A stretch of 64,000 nt of DNA from positions 105,820-169,819 of the forward strand of contig CAVYTG010000001.1 in assembly GCA_963771515.1 (NCBI GenBank), given 5' to 3'. The notes under the pieces were generated by a model, which saw nothing but the letters and a program-made list of their open reading frames with translations, had not been told where the DNA came from and did no database searches. Origin of the DNA: an uncultured Gammaproteobacteria bacterium (GTDB taxonomy: Bacteria > Pseudomonadota > Gammaproteobacteria > CAVYTG01). Shown one piece after another: positions 50,013 to 51,581 of this stretch; positions within the stretch are counted from its first letter, which is position 1; each line of letters starts with the position of its first letter. Both the position numbers and the translations under genes were made by a program.

Positions 50013-51401
50013 ATGATGAACCATTTATCGATTGTCATTCTTGCCGCGGGTAATGGGAAACGAATGCATTCTAAATTACCCAAGGTTTTACACCCGTTAG
50101 CTGGAGTTCCTATGCTGCAAAGGGTAGTGAATACTGCAGAAGCGATGCAGCCAGATCAGATTATGGTGGTTTATGGTAATCACGGTACGATTCCTAAGGC
50201 ATTGCCAAATTTGGATGTACAGTGGGTTTGCCAAAAAACACCGTTGGGAACAGCGCATGCAGTTTCACAAGCATTGCCGTATATCGAAGAGACGCAAAAG
50301 GTACTGATACTTTATGGTGACGTGCCTCTTATTTCAAAAGAAACACTTGAGTATCTTATTCAATCAACGCCTCAGGATGCTTTAGGGTTGATTGTGACTC
50401 GACTGAACAATCCGCATGGATTTGGGCGCATCATTCGAGATGAGTTTCATCATATTGTGCGTATTGTGGAGGAAAAAGATACCACGGAATCTGAAAAAGC
50501 GATTCAGGAAATCAATACTGGAATTTTATTGGTGCCTGCTGCCTGTTTGAAAAAATATTTGCCAAGAATAGAGAATCAGAATGCCCAAAAGGAATATTAC
50601 CTAACTGATATTGTGGCGCAAGCTAAAGCAGATAATCATGCTGTGCATGGGGTTGTGGCACTTAGCTCGGATGAAGTGTGTGGTGTGAATACATTAAAGG
50701 AGCTTGTAGAGCTAGAACGGATTCATCAATATCAGATGGCTTGTCAGTATTTGGAGAAGGGAATTTTGATTAAAGATCCTAAACGTTTTGATTTGCGGGG
50801 ACAATTAAAAGCGAACGCGGGGGTTATCATTGATGTTGATACCGTGTTGGAAGGAGATGTTGTATTAGGTGAAAATAGTGTCATTGGTCCCCACGTGTGC
50901 TTAAAAAATGTGACGATAGGAGAAGGGGTTGAGATTAAGCCTTACACAGTCATTGAAGATGCTGTCATCGAGTCAGGCTGTGTTGTAGGACCGTTTGCCA
51001 GAATTCGGCCTGGTACACGCTTGGCAAAGCAGGTGAAAATTGGGAATTTTGTAGAAATCAAGCATAGCGAGATAGGAGAAGGGAGTAAAGCAGGTCATCT
51101 GAGTTATCTGGGTGATGCTGTGATTGCAGAAAATGTCAACATTGGGGCCGGTGTGATTACTTGTAACTACGATGGTGTGAATAAACATAAGACTCAGATT
51201 AAGGCAGGGGCTTTTATTGGATCTGATGTTCAGCTGGTTGCGCCGGTTACTGTACATGCCAATGCAGTTGTTGGTGCAGGTTCAACCATTACAGCTGATG
51301 TGCCTAAAAATTCTCTGGTGGTTGCGCGTGCACGTCAAGTTGTTGTTGGGGATCAAGATAAAAAGGTACGTCAGCTGAAAGGGAAAGGCATTCAAAAATA
51401 A
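50013..51401 (+). CDS. glmU: Bifunctional GlcNAc-1-phosphate uridyltransferase / glucosamine-1-phosphate acetyltransferase
   Basis: SIVILAAGNGKRMHS nucleotidyltransferase motif and a C-terminal left-handed beta-helix hexapeptide-repeat domain. 462 aa. Confidence 0.9.
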   Translation: MMNHLSIVILAAGNGKRMHSKLPKVLHPLAGVPMLQRVVNTAEAMQPDQIMVVYGNHGTIPKALPNLDVQWVCQKTPLGTAHAVSQALPYIEETQKVLILYGDVPLISKETLEYLIQSTPQDALGLIVTRLNNPHGFGRIIRDEFHHIVRIVEEKDTTESEKAIQEINTGILLVPAACLKKYLPRIENQNAQKEYYLTDIVAQAKADNHAVHGVVALSSDEVCGVNTLKELVELERIHQYQMACQYLEKGILIKDPKRFDLRGQLKANAGVIIDVDTVLEGDVVLGENSVIGPHVCLKNVTIGEGVEIKPYTVIEDAVIESGCVVGPFARIRPGTRLAKQVKIGNFVEIKHSEIGEGSKAGHLSYLGDAVIAENVNIGAGVITCNYDGVNKHKTQIKAGAFIGSDVQLVAPVTVHANAVVGAGSTITADVPKNSLVVARARQVVVGDQDKKVRQLKGKGIQK

Positions 51402-51581
51402 ATTGAGGACACACCCTAGGATGTGTCCTCAATTTATTTTTTGAGCTCAAAACGTGTATAATGAGTCAAATTTCATGCAAATTTTCGTCACATATTTTAA
51501 TAGGCTTCCTCAAATTTACACAAAATTTGCCACCATTACCCACATTTTGAACTCAAAAAATAAATTGACGACACACCCTAA
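51397..51581. mobile_element. Family-3 MITE (185 bp) exactly filling the glmU-to-permease intergenic gap; its left TIR contains the glmU stop codon
   Basis: aaataaattgaggacacaccctaggatgtgtcctcaatttatttt (inner hairpin) ... gtataatgagtcaaatttcatgcaaat...aaatttgccaccattacccacattttg ... aataaattgacgacacaccctaag. The glmU TAA is at 51399-51401. Confidence 0.75.

Follow-up and report, generated by a model that had tools for sequence, protein, structure and literature searches.

A probable TA-duplicating MITE family around glmU and other genes of an uncultured gammaproteobacterium

The spacer between glmU and the permease gene

The window, i.e., the whole 64,000-nt stretch of DNA analyzed here, carries glmU on the plus strand (50013..51401; 462 aa; its Pfam domains were read from the identical protein P0001), followed on the same strand by an ABC-type permease gene (BPD_transp_1; 51585..53324). 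The first-pass annotation had placed a single MITE at 51397-51581. The repeat sequence is real but the boundaries were wrong: the region is not one element but a solo end and a full element with one TA in common. The former is a type-A right-end arm of 24 nt (51393..51416; like the other solo arms and the TAs it is listed without a strand), the remnant of an older insertion. The latter, c1, is a complete copy of the long form with arms of type A (51419..51578, plus strand; 160 nt), in which the arms occupy approximately 51419-51465 and 51532-51578 and the conserved core 51456-51549. The single TA common to both (51417..51418) was the target dinucleotide for the second insertion; after its duplicate (51579..51580) come AGCC and then the permease ATG at 51585. 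The element was said to abut the permease start, and it does, although with its TA it ends at 51580, 4 nt and not 3 nt before the ATG.

The glmU stop codon indeed lies in arm-derived sequence, as had been claimed. The arm homology begins at about 51393, and the segment 51393-51401 holds the two terminal codons of glmU and its TAA (51399-51401). Nothing in relatives corresponds to the last approximately 16 codons (51354-51398), and the tail (51340-51400) has no second occurrence within the 64-kb window. Conservation of the GlmU C-terminus and stop in relatives free of the repeat, which had been named as an observation that would refute the reading, did not appear: the tail proved variable in 40 homologues, and in two syntenic relatives both the tail and the stop differ, with no repeat there. 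The spacer is 183 nt here vs 64 and 82 nt in these relatives. The permease start codon is conserved with them, and the 25 nt conserved upstream of it in the relatives are missing here. Short-read assembly of the same organism yielded a contig that breaks within the arms on both sides of glmU.

The segment 51397-51417 repeats the right end of c1 in direct orientation (24/25 identical) and is inverted solely relative to 51418-51441. The remnant and the left arm of c1 pair into a 48-nt hairpin (51394-51441; 24 bp, -28.4 kcal/mol), and the folding z-score of the region 51380-51600 is -6.6. The terminator-like hairpin reported before exists (-28 kcal/mol) but was not flagged by the terminator scan. 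Its T-run starts 2 nt past the G+C-rich part, within the full stem. One may ask whether these parts form a cis-regulatory switch of three arms, in which arm 1 (the remnant with the glmU stop) and arm 2 (the left arm of c1) would build the terminator-like hairpin followed by UUUAUUUUUU, with arm 3 as the alternative partner. A ribosome ending glmU would cover arm 1, and arms 2 and 3 would then pair and allow read-through into the permease gene. The glmU stop codon 6 nt into arm 1, the stable 1:2 hairpin, the T-run after the G+C-rich part of arm 2 and the 2:3 pairing, which the region as a whole adopts in its minimum-energy fold, would all suit such a device. However, the argument is purely structural, the 1:2 hairpin was not called by the terminator scan, the T-run, starting two A's past the G+C-rich part, takes part in the base pairing of the full stem, and no second example of the arrangement was seen. 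Two insertions explain the arrangement without selection. We consider the switch highly improbable.

Complete, solo and degenerate copies in the window

Two sister copies, reported previously at approximately 49832-49963 and 13766-13932, were confirmed to within 1-3 nt. Copy c2 (49831..49961 with both TAs, plus strand) is a short form of 127 nt (49833-49959) with type-B arms; its length is explained by a 34-nt deletion between CAAATTT direct repeats. A native TATAAT (49825-49830), conserved in a relative, sits 2 nt upstream of c2. Copy c3 (13766..13930 with both TAs, plus strand) is a long form of 161 nt (13768-13928) with type-C arms. It lies between the stop of a MatE-family gene (13763) and the GGAG and ATG (13941) of a 526-aa ORF that has no Pfam match; these two genes, and not a pair of "CaaX" genes as annotated at first, flank the copy. 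Nor does the element supply the aggag ribosome-binding site at 13929-13934, of which only the A belongs to the TA flank, the GGAG being outside the inverted repeat.

The repetition is far beyond chance, and the assignment of this locus to a MITE family is supported. In 64 kb, each of the two core motifs is present exactly three times (0.19 and 0.00 expected), and the terminal 10-mer TAGGGTGTGT with at most one mismatch occurs 15 times in the window against 2.3 expected. The layout comprises conserved tips (GGGTGTGT and GAGAGTGT), arms of approximately 47 nt and an asymmetric conserved core. In all three complete copies the arms form an inverted repeat of 47-51 nt that is 86-90% complementary. 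Two forms are known, long (160-161 nt) and short (127 nt). No reading frame is conserved among the copies, their frames being different, and in the sole shared ATG frame all substitutions are non-synonymous. Among approximately 40 window ORFs scanned against Pfam, neither a transposase nor a Y1 (RAYT) gene was found.

All three complete copies have TA on both sides, and TA adjoins five of the six solo ends; with a TA frequency of 0.066, six TA flanks would arise by chance with a probability of about 9e-8. The remnant and c1 have one TA in common instead of two. Being palindromic, TA is formally inseparable from the two final bases of the inverted repeat, and its duplication is argued from the TA at 51417-51418 common to both insertions and from one empty site in a fairly distant relative.

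The core had also been proposed to contain a -10 box, from which the copies would drive outward transcription of the gene downstream. Copies c1 and c2 have TATAAT, and c3 has TGTAAT, at one and the same place in the core, which is among the places where the core deviates from symmetry. All four orientable copies face a downstream start codon, and promoters are indeed known from Correia elements and QMITE1 (PMC10969869, PMC2649163). Yet no -35-like hexamer stands at 16-18 nt and no TGn extension precedes the box in any copy. Neither scan lists a sigma-70-type site on the core TATAAT/TGTAAT, and promoter-like sites are not enriched in the region. Moreover, a distance of 90-120 nt separates the box from the element end, which makes it internal and not outward-facing at the end. 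The claim did not hold, and we regard a promoter function of the core as very unlikely.

Altogether, the window holds three full copies, one chimeric, one core-less and at least five solo copies; at least six partial copies are situated at gene ends. The core-less one is a perfect 52-nt palindrome of two type-A arms (36676..36727; no strand assigned), located between convergent genes and devoid of TA flanks, in which all private changes are mirrored. Solo arms lie, as had been observed, at gene boundaries, and those at pepP, atpB and 59144 were verified (BLAST E 2e-4 to 1e-6); a fourth, reported at 63694, turned out to be part of a degenerate chimeric copy (63545..63702, plus strand). The latter retains the inner arms and the right type-A arm, lacks the left tip, and carries two 27-nt units from a different repeat family in place of the core. 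At pepP, the A of the TA flanking a type-B arm (29106..29132) is the A of the pepP ATG. At atpB, the stop TAG is made of TA and the first G of another type-B arm (43718..43750), the first 22 nt of which match the type-B arm at 21 positions. The stop in relatives is TGA, without an arm. A merely diverged ancestral spacer was rejected as the source of the atpB arm, as the relatives' spacer has only the inner TTCATTTTT in common with it; we read the site as an arm remnant joined to the old spacer at a microhomology. A type-A arm (59142..59170) lies in the divergent spacer of kdsD and an ankyrin-WD40 gene. Missed earlier was a type-C arm in the 3' end of lptC (56701..56730; lptC is on the minus strand), which encodes ..KKSRDDTL.. 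and lengthens the protein, 299 aa here vs 281 aa in a relative, the tail being 18 aa shorter in the relatives.

A covariance model of the three copies recovered no further true copy. The segments 39071-39230, 27949-28106 and others were dismissed as unrelated long hairpins with a structure-only score.

Arm types, covariation and strand asymmetry

The arms fall into three types, A, B and C, which differ from each other at approximately 35-40% of positions while complementarity within each copy is kept. Double, pair-preserving changes affect 15 of the 54 pairs, a number reached by none of 500 shuffles and compared with 0-3 in slid controls. The core is 93-95% conserved, whereas the arms have only about 60-65% of positions in common. 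The usual MITE pattern is inverted here, divergence being greater in the arms than in the core, and this counts against the MITE reading. For each arm type there are extra copies that differ by only 1-2 nt, which indicates that each subfamily was amplified recently.

Mismatches within the stems are nearly all A:C on the plus strand, that is G:U on the minus strand, and the G:U counts are 9, 7 and 3 on the latter vs 1, 1 and 1 on the former. Minus-strand RNA is predicted to be more stable by 12-30 kcal/mol, and the minus strand is also the more stable one with DNA parameters. Since the GC skew is positive throughout, this bias is the opposite of that expected from C-to-T changes on a leading and coding strand. 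Five wobble positions are common to c1 and c2, and so only approximately 12-13 vs 2-3 independent events can be counted. The confinement of wobble pairs to the minus strand is the single odd feature of the family.

These data bear on the question of whether the hairpin itself is selected, with a functional minus strand, either as a structured RNA family or as a single-stranded DNA transposition intermediate recognised by its shape. The freely covarying stems would then leave the tips and the asymmetric core as the recognised parts, in line with a core conserved while the arms diverge. The minus-strand wobble with its gain in stability, the run of the bias against the C-to-T direction and the mirroring of all private changes in the palindrome 36676-36727 also point this way. 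The mirrored differences fall, however, between subfamilies with near-identical extra arms, as is expected if both ends co-diverged with a cognate DNA-binding transposase, and the independent wobble events are few. There is no conserved minus-strand promoter, the sole candidate being in the type-B arms. At the elements, Rfam gave nothing at the gathering threshold, the sub-threshold matches being to plant miRNA-precursor models only (20-54 bits vs thresholds of 61-249). Single arm units are not palindromes and have no GTAG motif. Selection of the hairpin as such seems very doubtful. Taken as a whole, it is unlikely that a folded single strand, and not duplex ends, is what is recognised and moved, or selected, in this family. 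This reading would explain together the 35-nt covarying stems, the fixed 8-nt tips and core, and the one-strand wobble, and, if true, it would make this a TA-targeting hairpin element with REPIN-like logic.

Relatives, known elements and the probable history of the insertions

Two syntenic relatives (70-80% DNA identity over 40 kb) allow filled and empty sites to be compared, and neither BLAST (E up to 0.1) nor nhmmer (E up to 1) detected a copy in these 40 kb. Of the five sites within the syntenic gyrB-kdsD block, none is filled in relatives L012, L015 and L008, in what is a comparison between species and not strains. The c2 site in a fairly distant relative reads GCTATAATTA|(AT)ACTTTT, with a single TA (a 10-nt match, E 0.03); for most spacers, the relatives are too diverged for a base-by-base alignment of the empty site. 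L011, an unrelated G+C-rich organism, was discarded. An ISAzo13-type transposase fragment at the end of L012 was rejected as a partner, there being no GGGTGTGT-type end nearby.

At least two copies lie outside the window. The N-terminal extension of MiaB, encoded in the same 2.0-Mb genome, is a translated type-A long copy that ends 2 nt before the real ATG, and a 103-aa ORF carries a type-B arm and the long core. Translated copies compared with the protein collections matched P0121 and P0122 only. An exact scan of species-representative genomes with one 21-nt core motif gave six chance matches, none of them in Coxiella. The exact core pattern gave two chance matches in the JGI metagenomes, both in a eukaryotic intron, and none in viral contigs, and no match was obtained with BLAST among plasmids.

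MITEs derived from IS630/Tc1-mariner elements (Stowaway-like) duplicate TA and are small, non-coding and able to form a hairpin as a whole element. The family resembles them in its TA flanks, small size, whole-element hairpin and lack of coding capacity, a likeness that does not imply parentage. REP and REPIN sequences, mobilised by RAYT transposases, are hairpin doublets whose arms stay complementary while the sequence drifts. Many solo units, a location outside genes at gene ends and strand-specific features are common to them and to our family, whose single arms, unlike REPs, are non-palindromic, lack a 5' GTAG and are flanked by TA.

In architecture, the closest analogue is the Correia element of Neisseria (CREE or nemis). 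Both have inverted-repeat ends of variant types around a directional core, a TA target, single repeats and fragments beside full elements, and positions just 5' of or between genes, within transcripts in which they yield hairpin RNA (PMC2649163, PMC10969869). Both also have long and short forms arising by internal deletion, 153-157 vs 104-108 bp in Correia elements (PMC2649163, PMC10969869) and 160-161 vs 127 nt here. There is no sequence relationship, however: the three copies contain neither the Correia core ends CCGGTACGG and TCAGGACAA nor the 26-bp Correia repeat (PMC2649163). The arms here have approximately 47 nt and split into three mirrored types, and the host belongs to a different, gammaproteobacterial lineage. 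Unlike the long Correia form, the elements contain no IHF consensus (the window has 13 WATCAANNNNTTR matches, all of them outside the elements), and no promoter-like site was found at their ends. QMITE1 and QMITE2 of Coxiella burnetii are likewise lineage-restricted MITEs of a host-associated gammaproteobacterium, overlap annotated gene ends, are translated into spurious or extended ORFs and have highly stable predicted hairpins (PMC5896051). QMITE1 has 300-400 bp, variable 2-4-bp repeats and 21-28-nt TIRs, and QMITE2 150-190 bp and 7-11-bp repeats (PMC5896051), whereas the flanks here are uniformly TA and the arms approximately 47 nt.

We conclude that the repeats probably constitute a lineage-specific, non-autonomous MITE family that inserts at TA and duplicates it; the family is an ordinary kind of selfish DNA in an unusually tidy example. 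The order of the two events after glmU is deduced as follows. An older copy would have been cut down to its 24-nt right arm, in which glmU now ends and whose flanking TA then stood just upstream of the permease ATG, and a full copy would have entered that same TA. Solo ends are more numerous than full copies and substitute for the ancestral spacer instead of being added to it, and extra deletion steps must therefore be assumed.

Classical TA-specific DDE transposases are of the IS630/Tc1-mariner type. The elements were most likely mobilised in trans by a TA-specific DDE enzyme encoded elsewhere in the genome, and they would persist at harmless sites such as short spacers inside transcription units and stop codons, the latter tolerating insertion because TA and the first G of the element remake TAG. 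Transcribed with the flanking genes, they would add a long RNA hairpin, and any effects on termination, RNase III cleavage or translation start would be side effects rather than their raison d'être.

The family has immediate consequences for the annotation of this organism, as part of the tail of both glmU and lptC derives from the repeat and the 35-aa N-terminal extension of MiaB is false, and it explains the short-read assembly breaks around glmU. It cleanly illustrates how a TA-targeting element can occupy a stop codon, or the position immediately ahead of a start codon, and still spare the gene. It also documents a burst of small repeats within a single host-associated lineage whose nearest sampled relatives are free of them. 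The mirrored arm subfamilies and the one-strand wobble bear on whether it is their sequence or their shape by which such elements are recognised.

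Element boundaries and the glmU–permease junction

Two core motifs occurred exactly three times each in the 64 kb (at 13.8, 49.9 and 51.5 kb), against 0.19 and 0.00 occurrences expected by chance, which bore out the repeat reported by the first-pass annotation. At every one of the three loci an inverted repeat was present, its arms of 47–51 nt being 86–90% complementary; the terminal 10-mer was over-represented sixfold in the window, and the folding z-score of 51380–51600 was −6.6. Boundaries were set by side-by-side reading of the three loci. Copy c1 (51419–51578, 160 nt, long form, arm type A) lies between TA dinucleotides at 51417–18 and 51579–80, c2 (49833–49959, 127 nt, short form, arm type B) between those at 49831–32 and 49960–61, and c3 (13768–13928, 161 nt, long form, arm type C) between those at 13766–67 and 13929–30. 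The short form lacks 34 nt, deleted between a pair of CAAATTT repeats. All four orientable copies, the one before miaB included, are oriented alike with respect to the gene downstream.

The glmU gene (50013–51401, TAA at 51399–51401) is followed by an ABC-type permease gene starting at 51585, and nearly all of the 183-nt spacer is repeat sequence. The interval had been read as a single MITE with the glmU stop codon in its left terminal repeat. The stop does lie in repeat sequence, but 51393–51416, which holds it, repeats the c1 right end in direct orientation (24/25 identical) and is a third arm, so the interval consists of a solo right arm and a full element. The solo arm ends in ...CACACCC and is separated from the left arm of c1, with which it pairs in a 48-nt hairpin (51394–51441), by one TA. 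This hairpin, proposed to be terminator-like, is stable (−28.4 kcal/mol) and combines an A-run, a G+C-rich stem and a T-run, but the T-run pairs as part of the full stem, and the terminator scan did not list the hairpin. When the whole transcript was folded, the left arm of c1 preferred the right arm over the solo arm.

TA was present at 6/6 flanks of the full copies (chance about 9e-8 at a TA frequency of 0.066) and at the tip of 5/6 solo arms. The abutting ends after glmU read CCC-TA-GG, whereas TA as repeat-terminal bases predicts CCCTA-TAGG. Insertion of c1 into the TA beside a pre-existing remnant would give the observed junction. This remnant would have read ...CACACCC-TA-AGCC-ATG, which is matched by the present solo arm at pepP (...CACACCC-TA-TG). 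That the elements are repeated, TA-flanked, non-coding hairpins is shown, as is the insertion of c1 at the TA beside a remnant, which would be the older of the two.

Orthologous sites in two relatives

The window (40% G+C) comes from a 2.0 Mb gammaproteobacterial genome whose GlmU had no match above 69% identity; in the AtpD search, the protein was 94% identical to those of two relatives' assemblies and 82–83% identical to those of many named genera. Sequences of one relative (L012, L013 and L014) are syntenic with 39.5–59 kb of the window, covering gyrB, the atp operon, glmU, permease, heptosyltransferase, sigma factor, hpf, lptB, lptC, kdsC and kdsD, with 71–80% DNA identity in genes. Searched by BLAST (E up to 0.1) and with an HMM built from the three copies (E up to 1), 40 kb of the two relatives yielded no family members; the window's homologous 20 kb carries four solo arms in addition to two full copies.

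The glmU–permease spacer measures 64 nt in L012; in L008, which belongs to the second relative together with L015, it measures 82 nt. Its last ~25 nt, with GGAAAG before the permease start, are conserved between the relatives; in the window this block is lost and only (A)GCC is left before the ATG. Homology of glmU to the relatives ends at 51353, and the stop with the 16 codons before it is unlike either relative. Since neither the length nor the sequence of the GlmU tail is constant among 40 homologues and the window's tail and stop differ from both relatives, no conserved C-terminus or stop was found in the repeat-free relatives that would speak against repeat-derived glmU codons.

The atpB stop is TGA in both relatives and precedes a conserved 59–60-nt spacer. 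The window has TAG instead, a codon formed by TA and the initial G of a type-B arm; its spacer measures 51 nt, and the remnant would join the old spacer at a TTCATT microhomology. LptC has 281 aa in a relative versus 299 aa in the window, where its tail, ...PKKSRDDTLYKNDKAL, passes through a type-C arm. The c2 site reads GCTATAATTA-(AT)ACTTTT with a single TA in the relative and GCTATAATTA-[c2]-TA-CTTTT in the window; between the two spacers no local alignment scored better (E 0.03). The TATAAT at 49825–30, outside c2, is conserved in the relative and so belongs to native DNA. These comparisons showed the elements to be absent from the orthologous sites.

Upstream of kdsD, L012 carries an ISAzo13-type transposase gene fragment (18906–19387) at the position of a solo type-A arm in the window; no end sequence matching the MITE family was seen near this fragment. 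The window has two copies (7917–7948, 34134–34163) of a G+C-rich 30-nt palindrome (TAAGGGGGAGAATCGCGATTCTCTCCCTTA), and a similar one follows atpC in L012 (9845–9872). None follows atpC in the window, and no terminator-like hairpin lies there between atpC and c2/glmU. At 41970–42534, gyrB on the minus strand diverges from atpI on the plus strand; GC skew is positive on both sides, and this junction is not the replication origin.

A second repeat family consists of 27-nt units (GCGTCGCTTCGCTCCTCGCAATGACGG), arranged tandemly and as inverted composite elements (5131–5376, 27949–28106, 39249–39396, 47716–47860, 63580–63660). The motif also ends a contig of the second relative (L015, 10670–10695), so this family is shared with relatives, unlike the MITE family. 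A minor pilin gene with a ComP_DUS (DNA-uptake-sequence receptor) domain (5433–5864, E 4e-15) directly follows a repeat cluster. A palindrome of ~45 nt (TTTAACCTAAATTCAG...) has three intergenic copies (28938–28985, 37923–37967, 38954–39000). The 160-nt hairpin element at 39071–39230 (58-nt arms, 86% complementary), adjoining tRNA-Arg and the 27-nt family, is unrelated to the MITEs in sequence; the covariance model caught its structure alone. Repeats also lie within genes: units of ~126 nt, mutually only 65–80% identical, in an ankyrin and WD40 beta-propeller protein gene (59395–61287), and an 18-nt tandem repeat (7405–7584) coding a Gly/Trp/His/Arg-rich segment of an ORF (7231–7767) without a Pfam match. 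The low-G+C stretch 12000–28000 (0.33–0.37) holds genes for an NRPS (19829–26893), an indoleamine 2,3-dioxygenase (17629–18825) and a mitochondrial-carrier-family protein (15524–16375); such eukaryote-like genes suggest a host-associated lifestyle.

Arm subfamilies, strand asymmetry and transcription signals

The three copies have common tips (TA-GGGTGTGT or TA-GAGAGTGT), agree at a skeleton of arm positions and carry a conserved core, 93–95% identical between c1 and c2. Their arms differ at roughly 35–40% of positions, and the differences are mirrored: 15 of 54 consensus pairs carry a pair-keeping change on both sides, and 95.7% of cells are paired. None of 500 shuffles reached any of these measures, and sliding the partner by 1–3 columns left 0–3 double changes. 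Solo arms of each type differ by only 1–2 nt (type A at 51393, 59144, 36676–36727 and 63680; type B at 29106 and 43720; type C at 56703), so the mirrored differences set apart three subfamilies that were amplified recently. In a 103-aa ORF (P0122), a type-B arm adjoins a long core. Arm types and core forms are freely combined. On the simplest reading, both ends co-diverged with their binding protein.

Nearly all arm mismatches are A:C on the plus strand, hence G:U on the minus strand (G:U counts 9/7/3 versus 1/1/1), and RNA folding gave −79.5/−75.0/−99.5 kcal/mol for the minus strand versus −49.0/−59.0/−87.2 for the plus strand. The plus strand is both leading (GC skew positive throughout) and coding, so the usual C-to-T bias would yield the opposite wobble pattern. 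Five wobble positions are common to c1 and c2, which leaves ~12–13 versus 2–3 independent events.

The suggested outward promoter in the core found no backing: TATAAT (TGTAAT in c3) has neither a −35-like hexamer at 16–18 nt nor a TGn and was absent from both scans, which showed no enrichment of promoter-like sites. Nor does the MITE end supply the RBS at c3, where the inverted repeat ends in CACACTC, followed by TA and GGAG, the element giving at most the A; of the two neighbours, named earlier as CaaX genes, one belongs to the MatE family (E 2e-19) and the other is an ORF without a Pfam match. Starts without a Shine–Dalgarno sequence follow an arm by 0–4 nt in three genes: permease (4 nt; 51556–51587), pepP (0 nt; 29106–29134) and miaB (2 nt).

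Relation to known elements

No further core copies were found by exact-pattern scans of species-representative genomes, JGI metagenomes and viral contigs, or in plasmids by BLAST. Among billions of proteins searched, translated copies matched only two, one being MiaB of the same genome (P0121). The annotated N-terminal 35 residues of P0121 are a translated element copy ending 2 nt before the true start, the Met of METLNIHIK; this extension is a repeat-caused annotation artefact. No Rfam family was applicable to the elements.

The closest parallel in architecture is the Correia element of Neisseria, which has a TA target, a directional core in an inverted repeat, long and short forms, end variants, and single repeats or fragments (PMC2649163; reviewed in PMC10969869). 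All these features recur here, as do sites just upstream of or between genes, within transcripts; however, there is no sequence relationship, and the present family lacks Correia's end promoters and its IHF site (no IHF consensus was found within the elements). Coxiella QMITEs are similar in kind, though their size and flanks are different (PMC5896051). REPIN-like elements resemble the family in their hairpin logic, but the GTAG motif and the palindromic units that define them are missing here. The family is therefore new and belongs to no named one, though its kind is known.

The window encodes no transposase gene, and a TA-specific DDE transposase would mobilise the elements in trans. Deletions removing the rest of an element with the adjoining spacer would produce solo arms, and elements would survive only at harmless positions. 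By analogy with Correia, their hairpins may affect mRNA through RNase III cleavage or attenuation. Altogether, this is a real MITE family, ordinary in kind, with a two-step insertion after glmU; its one odd feature is the one-strand wobble bias, combined with covarying arms.
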